In this document: positions 2,853 through 58,278 of the stretch, one piece after another | Position numbering within the stretch: the stretch's first letter is position 1 | Layout: every line of letters starts with the position of its first letter | Source: an uncultured Candidatus Saccharibacteria bacterium | GTDB taxonomy: Bacteria; Patescibacteriota; Minisyncoccia; Phycocordibacterales; DSPV01 | Length of the DNA: 64,000 nucleotides | Assembly: GCA_964349135.1 (NCBI GenBank) | Contig: CAYGFK010000004.1 | Coordinates: forward strand, 728-64,727 | Direction: 5' to 3' | Notes under the pieces: generated by a model | The model's database searches: none | What the model was told of the DNA's origin: nothing | Seen by the model: the letters and a program-made list of their open reading frames with translations, nothing else | Position numbers and translations under genes: made by a program

Positions 2853-3416
2853 CTATAAGTCCAACCTCAGCTGTCCGTCATCTCCGCCGAAGGGAGCACA
2901 GACAATGAAGTCGATAACATCTCCTCGTTGAGTGAATACGTGCGACGCACCGATGTGCGCGATTTCCGCCTCTTGCAAGACGACGACTGTCCGCTCTTCA
3001 ATTTTCGGAGAGATGCGTAGGAAGAGCACGTCGCTTGAGAAGTCAGGAGGATATCCGTCAGCTATCCGTCCAAGCGGTTGCACGAAGGGTCTTTCGTGGG
3101 GCTCTTGGATTAAGAATCCTCCATGGATTACCGTTTGATACGAGGTTGTCACCCGTATGAGTTCGTATTGAGGTATCTCGGCCCTCGGTATGGTTGGGTA
3201 ATCTGTGTCGTAGACAATGATGTGGTCCGGCGCGAAGCAATTTAATTCTACGACACACCTTTTCTTCCCGAATTCCACTAATTTCGGATGCCATAGCTCT
3301 AGAGGTTCTCTGATTGCACCCTTACCGGTCATTTTTGCACGAAAGACTCCGTAGGGCGTGATGGTAGCTATGTTATTTCTGGCAGTTTTCCTGAGACTTG
3401 TTCGCAATGCTATCAT
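2853..3416 (-). CDS. hypothetical protein (187 aa from Met15 of the track ORF)
   Basis: An AAGGAG Shine-Dalgarno lies 7 nt upstream of the ATG encoding MIALRTSL. The long ORF is protein-like in composition. No family recognised. Confidence 0.55.
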   Translation of the reverse strand: MIALRTSLRKTARNNIATITPYGVFRAKMTGKGAIREPLELWHPKLVEFGKKRCVVELNCFAPDHIIVYDTDYPTIPRAEIPQYELIRVTTSYQTVIHGGFLIQEPHERPFVQPLGRIADGYPPDFSSDVLFLRISPKIEERTVVVLQEAEIAHIGASHVFTQRGDVIDFIVCAPFGGDDGQLRLDL

Positions 3417-4510: not shown

Positions 4511-5863
4511 TTATCGTCCGAGAATAGCGTCTAAGGTGTTTTGTTTTGTCACGATGCGGGCGGGGATGTATCCTGCGGCGATGGTTGCAACCACGAGTAT
4601 AGCGACTCGGATGAGCGCACCTTCAACACTGACTGCAAGGATGCCGTCAGAGAACGGGAAGTTAATGGGGTGAGCAAGGAAATATGGTTCAAGCACGCCG
4701 AATACAATCAGCAGGCCAATTCCTGAGCCCGCAATCGCGTAGAGTAGCGATTGAATAATGTAGGCGACTTCGATTGAGGTGGAGCTAATCCCAATACCTT
4801 TAAGAATGCCGATGAATTTTCTCCGGGTGATGGCATTGATGAAGATGACAATGAATATGGTGATTGAGGCAACCACGACACCAATTGAACTGATAATGTT
4901 GCCGAGTGTCGCGAATGTCTTTTTCATATCTTTGATGAATTTAGGTTCGGCGTCGTCTCTTGTCTGGACGCGGGCGTAACGGTCTGCACCTGATGCAATG
5001 AGAGCATTCTTGATGGCAATAGGGTCAACACCTTTTTCAAGTACCACCATAATTTCATTCGCGTTGTAGTCGTAACGATTGATGAGGGAGCGGAACTGCG
5101 TATCGGTGAAGAAAACGCGGCGGTCGAGTTCGTCGACCTTACTTCGCACGATACCTTTGATACGTACGTCTCTTGTGCTCCCGCCAACTGAGATGCGCAC
5201 CTTGTCTCCAACTTGCACATCTTCAAGTGTTAGAAAGATGGGAGATTCGAAATCAAGAAATTCTTTAAGCAAGAGCGCGCCGATAAGAACTTGGTCGTAG
5301 TCATCCGGCTCAAGATATTCTCCTCGAATAAGGAGACTGGAAAGGCCGCTTGCGAGGTCCTCTTTAATAGGATTGATGCCGACAAATGATGTGCCGACAG
5401 CGCGTGACAGTTCTCCCGGTTTTCGTATTTCCTGGTAGTTTTCCTCGATGGTTCCTGATTCAAGGTAGCGGGGGTTCACGTATTTCACTCCCGGTAAGTT
5501 TTGTGCGGTACTTATGATGGTGGAGGTTTTTTCGATATACGGTCTCCCTTGTTTGGCGGAAATGAAGATATCACCGAGGTATCGAGTACCAACAGCCTGC
5601 ACGGCTCCCTCAAGTAGCCCGACAAGGACTCCGGAGACGACCACCATGTTGAGGAAGGTCAGGGTCATGATAAAGACAATGAGAAAGTTGGTCCAGATAT
5701 TGCTTCGTTTAACCTGCCGATAGGCAAGGAAAAAACCGACCGACAATGCGGTCGAGAGAGTCTGCTTTTTGGTGTAATCCTTTACGCGTTCAGGATTCAT
5801 GTATAGGCAATTGTATCGGTTTGTTCGAGAACTATCAATTATACGATATTTACCTTGTGTCAA
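4511..5863 (-). CDS. ABC transporter permease, FtsX/MacB-like (real start probably the ATG at 5800; the track start codon is TTG)
   Basis: N-terminal TM, large periplasmic domain and 3 C-terminal TM helices typical of FtsX-like permeases. Start overlaps the ATPase gene stop by 2 nt, consistent with an operon. Confidence 0.85.
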   Translation of the reverse strand: MTQGKYRIIDSSRTNRYNCLYMNPERVKDYTKKQTLSTALSVGFFLAYRQVKRSNIWTNFLIVFIMTLTFLNMVVVSGVLVGLLEGAVQAVGTRYLGDIFISAKQGRPYIEKTSTIISTAQNLPGVKYVNPRYLESGTIEENYQEIRKPGELSRAVGTSFVGINPIKEDLASGLSSLLIRGEYLEPDDYDQVLIGALLLKEFLDFESPIFLTLEDVQVGDKVRISVGGSTRDVRIKGIVRSKVDELDRRVFFTDTQFRSLINRYDYNANEIMVVLEKGVDPIAIKNALIASGADRYARVQTRDDAEPKFIKDMKKTFATLGNIISSIGVVVASITIFIVIFINAITRRKFIGILKGIGISSTSIEVAYIIQSLLYAIAGSGIGLLIVFGVLEPYFLAHPINFPFSDGILAVSVEGALIRVAILVVATIAAGYIPARIVTKQNTLDAILGR

Positions 5864-35996: not shown

Positions 35997-36926
35997 ATGG
36001 CAACTCTCTATACTGAGCAGGATAGTAATGTACGAAAAACGTGGTTTTTGATGTCGCTCTTTCTTGCGCTCATCGTAGGGCTCGGATGGTTTTTCAGCTA
36101 CTACTATGATTCCTATGCCATCCTTGTTTTTGCAGTTCTCTTTAGTGTGCTTGCGAACGTAGGAAGCTATTGGTATTCAGATAAAATAGTGCTTTCGTTG
36201 ACTCGCGCGAAGGAGGTGCGAAAGGAGGACAATCCGATGCTTTGGAATGTCGTTGAGAATCTTTCGATTACTGCAGGTTTGCCGATGCCTCGGCTCTGTA
36301 TTGTTGACGACCCGTCGCCCAACGCATTTGCTACAGGGAGAGACAAAGAGCACGCGGCCGTTGCAGTTACAACAGGCCTTTTGTCGATGCTTGATCGCTC
36401 GGAGTTAGAGGGAGTTATCGCGCACGAACTGTCGCATATCGGCAACCGCGATATTCTCATCTCGACGATCGTGGTGGTACTTGCGGGGCTTGTGGTGATG
36501 CTCTCCGATTTCTTTTTACGCATGCAATTTTGGGGAGGCGGTCGTTCCCGTGACAGCAAAGGTAATCAAGCACAGGCTATTATGCTTATCGTAGGGCTCG
36601 TGTTCGCTATCTTAAGTCCTATCATCGCCACCGTCATACGACTTGCGATTTCGCGTAAACGAGAATTCCTCGCCGATGCGTCAGGAGCTCTCCTCACGCG
36701 CTACCCTGAAGGTCTTGCCCGCGCACTCCAGAAAATTTCTCAGTATGGAGGGAAAATGCAACGTGCGAGCCACGCGACCGCGCATCTTTTCATTGCAAAT
36801 CCCTTTGGCGGAAAGAAAGGGGAGGGTGGAAGTTTGAATTTTTTCGACAGGCTTTTTCTAACACATCCGCCTATGGAGGAACGAATCCACGCCTTACTTG
36901 GCGGAAGAGAGTCGCATGGAAACTGA
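35997..36926 (+). CDS. htpX: zinc metalloprotease HtpX (M48 family)
   Basis: HELSHIGNRD HExxH, 4 TM helices, C-terminal LTHPPMEERI. Confidence 0.93.
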   Translation: MATLYTEQDSNVRKTWFLMSLFLALIVGLGWFFSYYYDSYAILVFAVLFSVLANVGSYWYSDKIVLSLTRAKEVRKEDNPMLWNVVENLSITAGLPMPRLCIVDDPSPNAFATGRDKEHAAVAVTTGLLSMLDRSELEGVIAHELSHIGNRDILISTIVVVLAGLVVMLSDFFLRMQFWGGGRSRDSKGNQAQAIMLIVGLVFAILSPIIATVIRLAISRKREFLADASGALLTRYPEGLARALQKISQYGGKMQRASHATAHLFIANPFGGKKGEGGSLNFFDRLFLTHPPMEERIHALLGGRESHGN

Positions 36927-37500: not shown

Positions 37501-37540
37501 TTGAAAGTTGTAGGGTAACAGTTTAAAGTGAGTAGCTATT

Positions 37541-37625
37541 GGAGGCGTCGCATAGTGGCCTAGTGCGCTCGCTTGGAAAGCGAGTATGGGGAAACCCATC
37601 GAGAGTTCGAATCTCTCCGCCTCCG
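37541..37625 (+). tRNA. tRNA-Ser (anticodon GGA), no encoded CCA
   Basis: Manual fold: acceptor GGAGGCG/CGCCTCC, 3-bp D-stem, anticodon stem CTCGC/GCGAG with loop TTGGAAA, long variable arm, T-arm GAGAG-TTCGAAT-CTCTC. Confidence 0.9.
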
Positions 37626-37807
37626 AATTTGTAAAATAGATAGCTTCTGCTATCTCATTTTGCAAACAGTCGGAAGGAAGCGAAGCTTTCGGAGATTCGA
37701 AAGGCGCAGGTATATTTTCGCAGTAGCGAAAATACCGAGCCAGGGTCGTGAAAATTTTCGAGCGGTAGCGAGGAAATTATTCCTGACCGAATCTCTCCGC
37801 CTCCGAA
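37608..37807. repeat. 20-bp perfect direct repeat CGAATCTCTCCGCCTCCGAA: copy 1 = tRNA-Ser T-loop to 3' end (37608..37627), copy 2 at 37788..37807. An att-like duplication bracketing a 160-bp insert
   Basis: Exact 20/20 identity seen directly. The insert contains imperfect about 42-bp tandem units (TTTTCG..GTAGCGA). Confidence 0.8.
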
Positions 37808-38049
37808 ATGACGAATTATAAGATATCGTTAGATATCTGTTTCGGCATCACGGGTTGTGAGATTTGGTGCCCAGACGAGCATTTTTGAGACGTTTGCGAA
37901 CAGAAAATCTATTCCGGGTCAGGGCCAATACGTGGCGACTTGCTTTGCATTGACTTTTATTGTGTAATGTGCTACCCTTCCCATTCAGAGCGTACTAATC
38001 AAGTCCTATCGGCTTGATCGCACATTCCAAACAAGCAAAAGGAGCGACT

Positions 38050-48904: not shown

Positions 48905-48940
48905 AAAACTAAAAACTCCCCGAAGGGAGTTTTTAGTTTC
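48905..48940. terminator. bidirectional rho-independent terminator (aaaaactcccc-gaa-ggggagttttt) serving nrdJ (+) and rnpB (-)
   Basis: Perfect stem flanked by A-run and T-run. Confidence 0.8.
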
Positions 48941-49281
48941 TTGTGTCTATAAGCCGAATTCTGTATTCAACCTTTCGGTTGGACGATAGTCATTTATCTA
49001 GCCCCTCGATTACTCTCGGGGTCGAGCGGCACTCTGTCAGTATGCACCACTGACAGCACGGCCTTGCAGCCAGGTAAGGATTTAGCCGTTTCATTCCGAC
49101 ATTGCTGTCGGCCTACTCCGCTTGCGCGGAGTCCCTATCCTTTCGGAATCGGGCGTTTCTGTTCGCACCTCACAGATTGCTCTGGACGGGCGTTACCCGC
49201 TACCCTTTCCGCCTTACGGCGGAGACAGTTCGGACTTTCCTCATCCCGCCCTCGCGGGCGGATGCGACTATCCAACACAAG
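48940..49281 (-). ncRNA. rnpB: RNase P RNA (bacterial type A), about 340 nt
   Basis: Minus strand reads GAGGAAAGTCCGAAC (P4), GGGTAGCGGGTAACGCCCG, GCGAACAGAAACGCC, CGCGCAAGCGGAGTAGG, GCAAGGCCG, CTAGATAAATGACTATCGTCCAAC, CAGAATTCGGCTTATAG. P1 pairs CTTGTGT/ACACAAG. All collinear with E. coli M1 RNA. Confidence 0.9.
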
Positions 49282-49394
49282 ACTAAGTTTATTTTACCAC
49301 CTTTTTATAGAAAGGCAATATCATCGTTGTTCATTGAATGGTTGGTTTTGTTTCGCTATACTACGTGCACCTATCAATAGCTTTTGCTCGCAAA

Positions 49395-51857
49395 ATGGAA
49401 AAACTTAAAGTGAAAATCGAGGAATCAGTTGACCGCGTATCTCGACTTGAAGATATGGCGTACTATATATTGCTTGGAACTGCGTTTTTGCTTCCCATCT
49501 TTTTTATTCCATCAATCGCGTTTCCTTTCCAATTCAGCAAGGCAATCTTCGTTTCGTTAACTTGTCTAACGGCATTTGCCTTATGGCTTATCGCGCGTCT
49601 TAAAGACGGCCGATACATGCTCTTAAACAGCTCAGTATACATTTTCGGGCTCTTTGTTCTTCTTGTGGTACTCGCTTCATCTCTTGTTTCTCCGGTTCCT
49701 CTTGATTCGCTTGTTGGGCAAGGCTCTGAAGTTTCGACATGGGCAAGTACCGTGGTTATGTTTCTGTTCATGTTTCTTTTTTCTGCACTATTTCGGCCTA
49801 AAGAGAAGGTGTTTTATCTTTATCTCGCACTGTTCTCCTCGAGTATTATCCTTATCGTATTCCATGCGTTCCGTTTTGTATTTGGGGCTGACTTCTTGAG
49901 TTTCGGATTGTTTACTGATGTGACATCGAACCTGATAGGGAAGTGGAACGACCTCGGAATCTTTTTCGGACTTGTTTCATTCCTGTCGCTCATGACACTT
50001 GAGCTCATGCGTCCTCGTGCGTTTCTTAAGTGGTTATTGTGGGCAGTCTTTCTACTCTCGGTATTTTCAGTTATACTCGTCAATTTCTCGACCCTCTGGT
50101 ATGTCCTCGCTTTTTTTGCCACGCTCTTCTCGGTGTATGCGTATGCGTTCAAGCGACAGTTTGTCGTGAACACAAAGTCTGAGTCTGATGACCTTGTCCT
50201 CGAAGGGAATGAATTCGACCCGGGAAGTCAATCTCGTCAGGGTCGTGTGTGGCGCGGAAGTATTCCGGCTATGGTGCTTATTGTAATCTCCGCCGTATTC
50301 CTTGTTGATTATTATACGGAGTCGCGTCCTGTCGGTACGAGTCTTGCGAATCGATTTGCCATTTCAAGTCTTGAAGTTCGTCCGAATTTTATTTCCACTC
50401 TTTCCGTTGGCAAGAACACACTAAAAACTGACCCGGTATTTGGTGCAGGCCCGAACCGGTTTGTTAATCAATGGCTCGCGTATAAGCCTGACGGTGTGAA
50501 TGACAGTATATTCTGGAATACTGATTTTTCAGTTGGGTTCAGTCTTCTGTTCACGCAGTTTTCGATGACCGGAGTTCTCGGATTCTTATTCTGGTCTCTC
50601 TTCATCCTCGCAATTACACTACTCGGTTTGCGTCGCTTGCTTACACCTCCTGAGGATACGTTAAAGCGATACCTTTCTATTTCATCGTTTTTTGCGTCAC
50701 TCTACCTCTGGACGTTCTTTGTCTTTTATGCGCCGAGCACGGTTGTGCTCACGCTTACGTTTTTGTTTACCGGCGTGTTTCTCGCTTCTCTTTACAACGA
50801 ACGTCTGCTGAAGCCAAAAGTAGTTACCTTCAGTGACGAACCAAAAACAGGATTTATATCAGTATTTGTACTAACCGTACTTTTGATTGGTGTGGTGACG
50901 CTCGGGTACGCATCAGGTAAACGTTTTCTTGCGTCGGCTCATTATCAAAGAGCTCTTTTGGCAGTCAATCAAGGGCAGAGTATTGATACGGTAGAGCAGT
51001 ATGCGTCGAGTGCTCAGAAGCTTGCGAGTAATGATAGATACAGTCGACTTATGGCCGAGCTTTATCTTGGCAAAATTGGCGCCCTCCTCAATTCTGAAGA
51101 CGCGTCGGACCCTGACGCAATCCGTGCACAATTTCAGTCTTTGATGGGTGAGGCACTTCGTTATGCGAATCTTGCAACAGAAGCTAATAAAACAAATTAC
51201 CAGAATTGGGTGACACTTGGAAGTATCTACCAGGCGGTGGTGCCACTAGCCATTGAGGGTTCGTATAGTGCTGCAAAATCAGCATATGACATCGCCCTCG
51301 CACTCAATCCTCGTAGTCCAGGTATGTATCTCTTACGGGCACGACTCGAAGTTGCCAATGAGGATACTGATGCGGCTCGAGAGGAAATAAATAAAGCTCT
51401 TGGGCTCAAGAGCAACTACACGGAGGCGATATTCCTCTTGTCACAGATTCAAGTTGAAGAAGGGGATGTTCGTGAGGCCATACAGTCTGTTGAATCGGCT
51501 ACGGTCCTTGCTCCGAATGACCCCGCAGCGTTCTTCCAGCTGGGTCTTCTCAAATACAACAATCGGGATTGGCGCGGAGCTATCGAAGCCTTTGAGCGCG
51601 CTGTGGTTCTTGCTCCGACGTATTCCAATGCAAAATATTTCCTAGGTCTTAGTTATGACAAAGTTGGAGATACTGAGAGGGCTTTGACGCAGTTTAATGA
51701 CCTTATGACGTTGAATCCAAGCAATACGGAAGTGCCGACCATTATTGAGAATATAAAAGCGGGCAGAGACCCGTTTGAAAGCGCCCGCGCAACGGAGCTC
51801 CCTGAGAATCGAGATGAGCTCCCTGTCGAAGAGCCAATCATCGAAGAGGAAGAGTAA
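49395..51857 (+). CDS. large polytopic membrane protein, O-antigen ligase/polymerase-like with C-terminal TPR repeats
   Basis: About 12 TM helices with a Wzy_C-like loop, then about 300 aa of TPR-like repeats (AKYFLGLSYDKVGDTERALTQF...). Start taken at MEKLKVK to clear rnpB. Confidence 0.75.
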   Translation: MEKLKVKIEESVDRVSRLEDMAYYILLGTAFLLPIFFIPSIAFPFQFSKAIFVSLTCLTAFALWLIARLKDGRYMLLNSSVYIFGLFVLLVVLASSLVSPVPLDSLVGQGSEVSTWASTVVMFLFMFLFSALFRPKEKVFYLYLALFSSSIILIVFHAFRFVFGADFLSFGLFTDVTSNLIGKWNDLGIFFGLVSFLSLMTLELMRPRAFLKWLLWAVFLLSVFSVILVNFSTLWYVLAFFATLFSVYAYAFKRQFVVNTKSESDDLVLEGNEFDPGSQSRQGRVWRGSIPAMVLIVISAVFLVDYYTESRPVGTSLANRFAISSLEVRPNFISTLSVGKNTLKTDPVFGAGPNRFVNQWLAYKPDGVNDSIFWNTDFSVGFSLLFTQFSMTGVLGFLFWSLFILAITLLGLRRLLTPPEDTLKRYLSISSFFASLYLWTFFVFYAPSTVVLTLTFLFTGVFLASLYNERLLKPKVVTFSDEPKTGFISVFVLTVLLIGVVTLGYASGKRFLASAHYQRALLAVNQGQSIDTVEQYASSAQKLASNDRYSRLMAELYLGKIGALLNSEDASDPDAIRAQFQSLMGEALRYANLATEANKTNYQNWVTLGSIYQAVVPLAIEGSYSAAKSAYDIALALNPRSPGMYLLRARLEVANEDTDAAREEINKALGLKSNYTEAIFLLSQIQVEEGDVREAIQSVESATVLAPNDPAAFFQLGLLKYNNRDWRGAIEAFERAVVLAPTYSNAKYFLGLSYDKVGDTERALTQFNDLMTLNPSNTEVPTIIENIKAGRDPFESARATELPENRDELPVEEPIIEEEE

Positions 51858-55919: not shown

Positions 55920-55990
55920 GCGGGTATGGTTTAGTGGTAGAATGCGACCTTCCCAAGGTTGAGACGGGGGTTCGATTCCCCCTACCCGCA
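55920..55990 (+). tRNA. tRNA-Gly (anticodon CCC), no encoded CCA
   Basis: Manual fold: acceptor GCGGGTA/TACCCGC, anticodon stem CGACC/GGTTG with loop TTCCCAA, T-arm GGGGG-TTCGATT-CCCCC. Confidence 0.85.
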
Positions 55991-56147
55991 TATCTTCGAG
56001 CGAAGCGAGATGAATAAAGGTAGAGAAAGCGCCGGGGGCGCTCTCGTGGGGAATCGAAGCCCGATTGAGTATTCTCTGGAGCGCGAAGCGTGAACAGGGA
56101 ATCCAATCAGGGTACTGACCCTGTAAGGGTCGAACTTACCCGCATAT
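55983..56147. repeat. direct repeat TACCCGCATAT (tRNA-Gly 3' end, 55983..55993) recurring at 56137..56147 with degenerate T-arm copy (GGGTCGAAC), bracketing a 140-bp insert
   Basis: 11/11 identical core seen directly. Upstream similarity is partial. The insert shares TTCGAGCG-N-AGCGAG with the tRNA-Ser insert. Confidence 0.55.
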
Positions 56148-56574
56148 GAAAAAAGGAGAAGATTATACTGGCATTACCGTAGTGTATCTCTGTCATGATG
56201 GACAGGGTAATATTCTCTTGAATAAACGAAGCAAGAAATGTCGTGATGAACACGGTTGTTGGGACCCGGGCGGGGGAGGAGTGGAATTTGGAGATACGGT
56301 AGAACATACACTTCAAAAAGAAATCCTCGAAGAATACGGAACAAATATCCTCGACAAGGAATTCTTAGGTTTCCGAGATGTGCATCGTGTCCATGAGGGG
56401 AAGAAAACGCACTGGATAGCCCTTGATTTTAAGGTACATATCGCTCGAGATAGAGTCGTGAACGGAGAGCCGGAGAAATTTGATGAGGTTCGTTGGTTCA
56501 CTCTTGATACGCTTCCCGCACCTCTACACTCTCAATTCCCAGATTTTCTCAAACGATATCGAAATCGTCTTTAA
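56146..56574 (+). CDS. NUDIX hydrolase (paralog of 40471..40893)
   Basis: Nudix box GGGVEFGDTVEHTLQKEILEEYG. C-terminal NGEPEKFDEVRWFTLDTLPAPL resembles SGEPK..ESWGWYALDELPKPL of the other copy. Confidence 0.85.
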   Translation: MKKGEDYTGITVVYLCHDGQGNILLNKRSKKCRDEHGCWDPGGGGVEFGDTVEHTLQKEILEEYGTNILDKEFLGFRDVHRVHEGKKTHWIALDFKVHIARDRVVNGEPEKFDEVRWFTLDTLPAPLHSQFPDFLKRYRNRL

Positions 56575-56966: not shown

Positions 56967-57041
56967 GCCCCCGTAGTTCAATGGATAGAACAGCCCCGTC
57001 CTAAGGGGTAGATGTCAGTTCGATTCTGGCCGGGGGCACCA
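56967..57041 (+). tRNA. tRNA-Arg (anticodon CCT), CCA encoded
   Basis: Manual fold: acceptor GCCCCCG/CGGGGGC, D-arm GTTC-AATGGATA-GAAC, anticodon loop GTCCTAA, T-arm GTCAG-TTCGATT-CTGGC. Confidence 0.88.
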
Positions 57042-58202: not shown

Positions 58203-58278
58203 GCCGAGGTAGCTCAGTTGGTAGAGCGTCCGCCTGAAGAGCGGTAGGTCGCCGGTTCGACTCCGGCCCTCGGCACCA
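58203..58278 (+). tRNA. tRNA-Phe (anticodon GAA), CCA encoded
   Basis: Manual fold: acceptor GCCGAGG/CCTCGGC, D-arm GCTC-AGTTGGTA-GAGC, anticodon loop CTGAAGA, T-arm GCCGG-TTCGACT-CCGGC. Confidence 0.9.

Follow-up and report, generated by a model that had tools for sequence, protein, structure and literature searches.

The 64-kb stretch of Candidatus Saccharibacteria DNA analyzed here (referred to below, at its full length, as the window) carries, behind the gene for tRNA-Ser(GGA), an element at positions 37670–37807 that belongs to a family of structured elements, each about 140 nt long, of which many copies exist. The right-hand end of the element repeats the 3′ tail of the tRNA gene exactly, and from this repeat a first-pass annotation had proposed either the scar of a deleted integrative element or a miniature non-autonomous insert. 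The functional form of the element is most simply an RNA of the plus strand, and the reading favored here, to which about an even chance is given, is that of a co-transcribed, tRNA-capped small RNA module, multiplying by recombination at repeated tRNA tails. The function of the module is inferred only.

The tRNA-Ser Tail and Its Second Copy

The tRNA-Ser(GGA) gene lies on the plus strand, as do all parts of the element, at 37541–37625 (Rfam RF00005, 56 bits; ARAGORN places it at 37540–37626) and does not encode CCA. The 20-mer CGAATCTCTCCGCCTCCGAA has exact matches at 37608–37627 (copy 1, segment A) and at 37788–37807 (copy 2, segment A′) and no other match in the window with up to three mismatches allowed; by chance 0.02 matches were expected, and none of 100 shuffles gave two or more. 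The exact 20-bp repeat of the tRNA tail noticed by the first-pass annotation was borne out, and so was its span: it starts at C56 of the T loop, continues through the 3′ strands of the T stem and of the acceptor stem, and ends with the discriminator G and two trailer bases. The description of the intervening segment as tandem units of about 42 bp fared worse, as Tandem Repeats Finder gave no tandem repeat at 37628–37787. The impression of such units arises because the tips of two hairpins, P2 (UUUCGCAGUAGCGAAA, 37716–37731) and P3 (UUUUCGAGCGGUAGCGAGGAAA, 37753–37778), look alike.

Definition of the Family

Relatives, too, repeat the tail of their tRNA-Ser gene farther downstream, each copy following the sequence of its own tRNA, which differs from that of the window. 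A direct tail copy is located 166 bp away in locus L001 and 89 bp away in L028, and an inverted copy, 50–67 nt downstream and always ending in GATTCGAA, is present in L004, L005, L007, and L011; the counterpart of this inverted copy in the window is segment B, GGAGATTCGAA at 37691–37701. From three full copies (the window, L005, and L011) the search pattern TCGAA-N40/41-GGGTCGYGA-N31/32-TGACCGAAT was drawn, and a metagenome scan with it returned 66 loci. The covariance model R1 (type I core), built from 53 distinct copies with the window copy among them, gave 79 matches in all, at 60 loci; the search for further copies, suggested when the repeat was first noticed, thus makes the insert one of 79. 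With R1, 62 of the 66 pattern-selected loci reached at least 68 bits, four suspected chance loci and the single viral match were rejected, and copies outside the training set scored 40–118 bits.

No Rfam 15 model, those of hammerhead, twister, pistol, hatchet, and HDV-like (hepatitis delta virus-like) ribozymes included, matched over the window element, over the element behind tRNA-Gly in the same window or over eight canonical loci, and no description of a tRNA-tail-capped element was found in the literature searched. The family, seen in bacteria of the candidate-phyla-radiation type, is apparently undescribed so far.

Several candidate relatives were considered and rejected. The sX4 model (RF02223) reached 25 bits (E = 0.003) against a gathering score of 70, and this score stems from the tRNA part of the model; sX4 matches tRNAs generally, since its model contains a tRNA. 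A hammerhead junction (GAAA, GUC, and CUGA-like), mapped by hand, was given up because C3 lacks conservation, G prevails at position 17, and an extra base would have to be accepted in the CUGANGA box, and a kink-turn reading of P3 and P2 was dropped in favor of the continuous P3 helix that covariation supports. TIGR-Tas arrays consist of 36-nt units of the box C/D type (PMC12045711) and are unrelated.

Structure and Covariation

The alignment of copies was folded by RNAalifold into a three-way junction, in which P1 is formed by B and A′, and P2 and P3 are the arms. Compensatory changes occur in 22 of 33 pairs; paired cells amount to 93.6%, compared with 30–46% when the partners are slid, and the covariation score of 0.536 (0.06–0.12 in the slid controls) was matched by none of 500 shuffles. 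Among pairs that the search pattern does not force, G-U combinations outnumber A-C combinations by 67 to 25. This excess points to a single-stranded functional form with the polarity of the tRNA, most simply a plus-strand RNA.

In the window the matching core spans 37683–37804 (R1, 112.9 bits, E = 5e-33) and has the type I layout B – GAAAG – P2 – P3 – UGAC – A′; the match to R1 is partly by construction, as this copy belongs to the training set. The full layout of an element comprises hairpin P0, segment B, the P2/P3 core, and A′, often preceded by a copy of the 5′ acceptor strand. At the place where canonical relatives carry the full 7-nt acceptor copy, the window has a degenerate UCGGA (37670–37674), which pairs in folds with UCCGA of A′ (37802–37806) or of A (37622–37626). 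It is followed by P0 (37676–37690), whose GGAAGC-GAA-GCUUUC is a shortened version of the canonical 9-bp hairpin with a CUGC loop. Segment B, GGAGAUUCGAA (37691–37701), is the 5′ strand of P1, a helix that covaries across the family; it consists of a T-stem 5′ strand and the complement of a T loop, and it complements the T loop of the tRNA (T54–T60) together with the T-stem 3′ strand. The P2 arm (37703–37741) has a GGC…GCC base and an inner hairpin at 37709–37736, and the P3 arm (37744–37788), GGUCG(U)GAA…UUC(C)UGACC, is crowned by GAGCGGUAGCGAG. Segment A′ runs from C56 of the T loop through the 3′ strands of T stem and acceptor stem into the first few trailer bases; it provides the 3′ strand of P1 (37788–37796 pairs with B) and that of an acceptor-like closing helix. 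The element therefore keeps a cut-down tRNA order, with P0 in place of positions 8–48 and, instead of a closed T loop, a helix on which the P2/P3 core is mounted.

Such an order raises the question whether the second copy is what remains of a tandem duplicate of tRNA-Ser, decayed and functionless. The succession of 5′ acceptor, T-stem 5′, T-stem 3′, and acceptor 3′ strands speaks for this view, as do the duplicated and diverged trailers and terminators. However, neither Rfam RF00005 nor ARAGORN found a tRNA over copy 2 (37626–37830, even at E ≤ 10), the T-stem 5′ partner is missing directly upstream of copy 2, which pairs instead with B, 90 nt off, and the same P0/P2/P3 core, with compensatory changes, stands behind more than 10 tRNA specificities and a tmRNA, an outcome that independent decay cannot yield. 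As a complete explanation the decayed tRNA is refuted by this conservation of the core and is held to be very improbable, although a tRNA may have been the remote origin of the scaffold. The possibility that copy 2 is a pseudo-tRNA, named at the outset as the finding that would speak against an integration scar, holds in an altered form only: copy 2 is a strand of a helix that imitates the T-stem/acceptor helix, and it is not a simple decayed tRNA.

Arms Fitted to the Host Gene

A same-strand tRNA was found at most 120 nt upstream of 44 of 73 copies, and the hosts cover at least 11 specificities: Ser (five anticodons), Tyr, Pro, Arg, Asp, Val, Asn, Lys, Glu, Ile, and Gly. Seven of the other copies are later members of arrays and seven lie at contig ends. 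The arms reproduce the gene upstream, its T-loop variant included. Behind a T loop TTCGAAT, B ends in ATTCGAA and A′ starts with CGAAT, and behind TTCGAGT (Ile) the corresponding ends are ACTCGAA and CGAGT. In L098 (3254–3883, minus strand) a type I element is placed about 70 nt past a tmRNA gene with the unusual T loop TTCAATT; its B, GGGGAATTGAA, ends in AATTGAA, its A′ begins with CAATT (CAATTC), and both fit that loop. In many elements an exact 7-nt copy of the 5′ acceptor strand stands at a fixed distance, as in L104 (GGATGGG), L120 (GGAGAGG), L131 (TCCGCGG), L101, L111, and L086. These acceptor-like stems were read directly, since a comparison of the best 7-mer complement with shuffles is too noisy owing to indels in A′.

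Some arms differ from the nearest tRNA; in L135 the element's acceptor pair is GGAGAGT/CCTCTCC, whereas the adjacent tRNA has GGTGGGG. Several copies that lack a detectable tRNA have short conserved sequences upstream, YAATACAYCACCGC in L088, L092, and L142 and GGGCACTTAACCC in L112 and L113, which may be the 3′ ends of other RNA genes not recognized by ARAGORN and Rfam.

Between the tRNA and B, 24 of 37 loci have no terminator-like hairpin and 13 have one. The window is among the latter: AGATAGC-TTCT-GCTATCT, followed by CATTTT, occupies 37638–37661 and was missed by a generic terminator scan because it has too few G-C pairs.

Two further tRNA genes of the window, tRNA-Arg(CCT) at 56967–57041 and tRNA-Phe(GAA) at 58203–58278, encode CCA and have no element, and tRNA-Ser and tRNA-Gly, both with an element, do not encode CCA. 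Over all loci this association is not convincing (30 vs. 7 against 35 vs. 16), and the CCA test is unreliable.

The complementarity of B to the tRNA itself, and not only to A′, suggests another role, that of a cis-acting strand-swap switch on tRNA maturation. According to this idea, pairing of B with A would unfold the tRNA, pairing of B with A′ would close the junction and free the tRNA, and the choice between the two would depend on a ligand or protein bound to the conserved junction. B complements A over 8–18 nt and follows A better than A′ (18 of 18 positions in L139), and the design, in which gene-specific arms are joined to a core common to all, recalls an aptamer and its expression platform. 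For the window precursor (37541–37860), the minimum-energy fold is the swapped one, in which A′ closes the tRNA body and A pairs with B (−131.8 kcal/mol, compared with −126.9 kcal/mol for the native topology); this gap exists because two extra U:A pairs are possible for A only. Against a switch, about 20% of copies have no adjacent tRNA, later array members have no tRNA of their own, and some arms, as in L135, differ from the nearest tRNA. The terminator-like hairpins of the 13 loci, the window included, lie between the tRNA and B, and the complementarity of B to A is automatic once B pairs with A′, because the T arm is a near-palindrome. Taken together, a switch appears improbable.

Type II Elements and Hybrids

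The element behind tRNA-Gly(CCC) (55920–55990) extends over 55991–56148 on the plus strand and belongs to a second type, homologous to the tRNA-Ser element of L001. Its B, GTGGGGAATCGAA at 56046–56058, is followed by a long hairpin and the module ACTGACCCTGTAAGGGTCGAA, and the 11-mer TACCCGCATAT at 56137–56147 duplicates 55983–55993; a NUDIX open reading frame (ORF; start at 56146) begins within this repeat. A hybrid was observed behind tRNA-Gly in L096 (1300–1650), where a type I B and P2 are combined with an expanded P3 that holds the type II module ACTGATCCTGTAAGGATCG; distal modules therefore appear exchangeable.

Arrays, Exchange and Patchy Occupancy

Tandem arrays were found in L127, L105, L134, L139, L094, L108, and L146. 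Two to three elements follow a single tRNA in L146 (3182–3760, minus strand), L135 (4170–4454), L094 (1–440), and L108 (143–587), and those of L135 and L146 are of mixed type. Single contigs can hold several copies, i.e., four in 14 kb of L098 and three in L110. In the latter, at 3244–3365 and 5225–5346 (minus strand), two tRNA-Ser(CGA) genes with a type I element behind each lie within 2 kb, and to judge by this arrangement the whole tRNA-plus-element unit appears to have been duplicated.

The core also recurs at unlike tRNAs: L096 (tRNA-Pro) and L098 (tRNA-Ser GCT), from one sample and of equal guanine-plus-cytosine (GC) content, have a 104-nt core that is 100% identical, with P0 about 80% identical and locus-specific arms. 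P3 stem sequences are lineage-specific. In many loci A′ decays and B remains complementary to the tRNA, so that B pairs better with A than with A′ in 17 loci, worse in 2, and equally well in 20; in L139, where B fits the tRNA throughout, A′ differs. The trailer and terminator that follow A also resemble those that follow A′, as duplicates that have since diverged (window, L124). In the window a second terminator-like hairpin, AGATATC-GTTA-GATATCT followed by GTTTCG (37821–37844), is such a diverged copy of the hairpin at 37638–37655.

Occupancy varies among orthologous tRNA-Ser(GGA) loci: the window has type I, L001 has type II, and L002 is empty; of 21 Parcubacteria loci, about 6 carry an element. 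The comparison of orthologous loci for empty and occupied sites, proposed in the first-pass annotation, thus revealed patchy occupancy, and a strain-level empty site was not among its results, as the two contigs with an identical HtpX gene were L150, identical over the element, and L151, which ends inside the tRNA. The latter contig (Logan contig ERR3094294_525580) stems from a separate assembly of this population, ends at the equivalent of about 37592 and lacks one base in the D arm, which is probably an assembly artefact.

These observations would also suit a mobile element that is non-autonomous, takes the form of a structured RNA (or single-stranded DNA) and targets the T loop and 3′ end of tRNA-like genes. 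Here A and A′ would be the target duplication, with the left edge fixed at C56 and the right edge at a variable point slightly beyond the gene; recognition of the target would rest on base pairing by B and by the 5′-acceptor copy, and the enzyme would be encoded elsewhere in the genome. The number of copies and the arrays (L098, L110, L094, L108, L134, L139, and L146), the variable occupancy, the identical cores at two tRNAs of one sample with lineage-specific P3, and the decay of A′ while A and B stay matched (17 vs. 2 loci) all speak for such an element, and so do direct repeats that begin at C56, measure 6–27 nt or more and sometimes reach into the trailer, as well as intact, self-consistent arms that are unlike the nearest tRNA or have no tRNA nearby (L135, L113). 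On the other side, no transposase, reverse transcriptase, or integrase was found in the window or as a recurrent neighbor of copies, terminal inverted repeats other than P1 are absent, the target duplication has no fixed length, and no strain-level pair of empty and occupied sites was found for the window locus. The arms, T-loop variant included, fit each host gene, which simple copy-and-paste of a donor cannot explain. Such a mobile element is held to be less likely than the favored reading and is its main rival. A miniature inverted-repeat transposable element (MITE) in particular does not fit, since the flanking repeat of 6–27 nt or more always starts from C56 and the sole inverted repeat, P1, varies with the host tRNA. 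Of the two proposals made at first sight, the miniature non-autonomous element nevertheless comes closer to the evidence, with its multiple copies, arrays, patchy presence at orthologous loci, and duplicate of the host-gene 3′ end.

Search for Integrases and the Scar Hypothesis

The other proposal was that A and A′ are attL and attR, i.e., that the insert is the scar, or a cis-mobilizable remnant, of an element inserted into the tRNA-Ser 3′ end by a tyrosine integrase. It draws on the exact 20-bp direct repeat of a tRNA 3′ segment, on the gene order past the tRNA, which is not conserved in relatives, and on real insertions at the 3′ end of the same tRNA in relatives (3.3 kb; L118, L126, and L089 compared with L084 and L144). 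The integrase gene that was to be looked for did not appear: Pfam scans of 59 ORFs across the window gave no integrase, transposase, or reverse transcriptase and housekeeping functions only, and within 4 kb of about 60 copies no mobility protein recurs, the clusters of neighbors being syntenic housekeeping genes. Matches to the type I and type II patterns on viral contigs were dismissed as chance, the three loci having no tRNA and lying in coding-like sequence, and L081 failing to be confirmed by the covariance model. The right-hand junction TGAC/CGAAT is asymmetric and lacks the symmetric core of a T-loop attachment (att) site, and the same design stands behind tRNA-Gly in the window. Moreover, a scar should drift neutrally, and the insert fails this expectation, as it shows compensatory changes across distant lineages; it is conserved between lineages whose HtpX proteins are 55–73% identical and has homologs behind more than 10 other tRNA species. 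With a structured and covarying insert, no mobility gene, an asymmetric junction, and chance-like viral matches, the scar is not supported, and we consider it most unlikely.

The 3.3-kb insertion lies exactly between tRNA-Ser(GGA) and its type I element in L118 (115–3446), L126, and L089 and is absent from L084 and L144, otherwise identical contigs. It has a 10-bp flanking direct repeat, CCGCAAAGTA, and encodes a membrane-like protein of 281 aa and one of 329 aa with DKNNVY repeats, but no integrase; one of its ends, GCGGTACCTTTTGGTTRAAAT, was found again beside the L001 element, in opposite orientation.

A Proposed tRNA-Capped Small RNA Module

The favored reading takes the element for an RNA gene. 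The element would be transcribed together with its tRNA or through read-through, and its RNA would fold into the three-way junction, with a closing helix as a cap, built in imitation of the acceptor/T-stem helix of the tRNA in front of it. This cap may let RNase P and RNase Z excise the element RNA and may also stabilize it, and the product would be a tRNA-scaffolded small RNA, whose active part is presumably the conserved P2/P3 core. The repeated tRNA tails (A, A′, A″) would give rise to new copies and arrays through duplication, unequal recombination or gene conversion, with no integrase involved. In favor of this reading are the R1 score of the window copy, the covariation and the G-U excess, the position of copies behind tRNA genes and a tmRNA gene, arms that reproduce the gene upstream, the 24 of 37 loci free of a terminator-like hairpin before B, and arrays and identical cores in the absence of mobility genes.

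Several observations weigh against this proposal. The sample used for covariation was gathered by a sequence pattern, so the invariant TCGAA, GGGTCGYGA, and TGACCGAAT reflect ascertainment and are no evidence. For 15 of the 73 copies there is no tRNA in the 700 nt upstream, and the window copy is set apart from its tRNA by a terminator-like hairpin. The canonical closing helix also pairs the discriminator and two trailer bases (UGC:GCA), unlike a normal substrate of RNase P or RNase Z, and a helix takes the place of the T loop, so that the usual elbow recognized by these enzymes is missing. Patchy occupancy of orthologous loci, several copies per 14 kb, and identical cores would suit a selfish mobile element equally well.

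The small RNA module, the mobile element, and the strand-swap switch are overlapping readings; the first two differ on the co-occurrence of an enzyme and on the gain of copies at new tRNAs over short time scales. A bolder version of mobility can also be put forward, as a speculation that we think unlikely to prove right: a new class of RNA-structured element that colonizes tRNA-like 3′ ends, rewrites its arms for each host, and spreads within genomes by an RNA-guided or ribozyme-type process in which pairing serves to recognize the T loop, with no protein encoded by the element.

Comparison With Known Systems

Duplications of tRNA att sites and cis-mobilizable elements (CIMEs) share with the present family a tRNA 3′ repeat that flanks an insert, an upstream copy that restores the tRNA, and possible tandem accretion. 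They differ in that the family has neither an integrase nor an autonomous relative, that its insert of only about 160 bp is conserved and covaries in the manner of an RNA, and that the right-hand copy is part of the structure, at a junction without a symmetric core site. In MITEs and REPINs one meets equally short, multi-copy, structured, intergenic, and non-coding sequences; unlike these, the present elements are co-oriented with and attached to tRNA-like genes, have no fixed target duplication, and carry arms rewritten for each host.

In MALAT1-mascRNA and the tRNA-miRNA units of gammaherpesviruses, a noncoding RNA is released by tRNA-processing enzymes. Plant tRNA-snoRNA genes are described as dicistronic and as released by the same kind of enzymes (Kruszka et al., 2003, as cited in PMC12045711). 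As in these dicistronic units, the putative noncoding RNA lies here on the same strand behind a tRNA, and the tRNA-like helix could signal processing; a terminator-like hairpin between the two is absent from 24 of 37 loci and present in the window. The differences are that the downstream RNA imitates the acceptor/T-stem helix of its neighbor, that it occurs in arrays and behind many tRNAs, and that processing is here a proposal.

In the tRNA-like domain of tmRNA, the tRNA-like structures at viral 3′ ends, and the bacterial Y-RNA-like YrlA, an acceptor-like stem and a T-stem-like helix are stacked and joined to unrelated RNA modules; these RNAs retain a genuine T loop and an unpaired 3′ end. 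The element shares the stacked helices joined to other modules; by contrast, its T loop is opened into a helix leading to the three-way junction, its discriminator is usually paired, and it has no Rfam match. Riboswitch three-way junctions resemble it in having a P1 5′ strand with two possible partners, whereas in the element the alternative partner would be the tRNA, which many copies lack.

Gene Neighborhood and Other RNAs of the Window

An HtpX-type M48 peptidase is encoded upstream of tRNA-Ser(GGA), at 35997–36926, and is 72–73% identical to proteins from Candidatus Taylorbacteria metagenome-assembled genomes and 54–66% identical to those of other Patescibacteria. The order GroEL – LemA – HtpX – tRNA-Ser(GGA) is retained in most of the 27 loci of relatives, and no conserved genes follow the tRNA across these loci. 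The view that base composition marks an accessory region downstream turned out weak, as the GC content is 0.45 at 38–39 kb and 0.43 at 39–40 kb, within a range of 0.39–0.55 in the window. Functions assigned by Pfam to ORFs of the window include ATP synthase, GroES/EL, aminoacyl-tRNA synthetases, RNase J, RNR, MurJ, LepA, and TsaD.

A bacterial type A RNase P RNA was recognized at 48934–49283 (minus strand, 118 bits), and the ORF at 49064–49408 that overlaps it is probably not a gene. On L129 (10051–10171) a LOOT RNA (RF03000, 63.5 bits) was noted, which is unrelated to the element.

Significance

If the family is real, as its covariation and copy number say, it represents a common, unannotated feature of tRNA loci in a large and little-understood branch of bacteria. 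Repeats of tRNA tails are usually taken as boundaries of islands, and at loci of this kind such a reading would give false att calls. Should the element be an RNA gene, it would provide a natural tRNA scaffold for a small RNA, whose conserved P2/P3 core might be a ribozyme, an aptamer, or a protein-binding RNA of a new kind; should it be mobile, a protein-less element that pairs with the T loop and adapts its arms to each target would represent a new mode of target choice.

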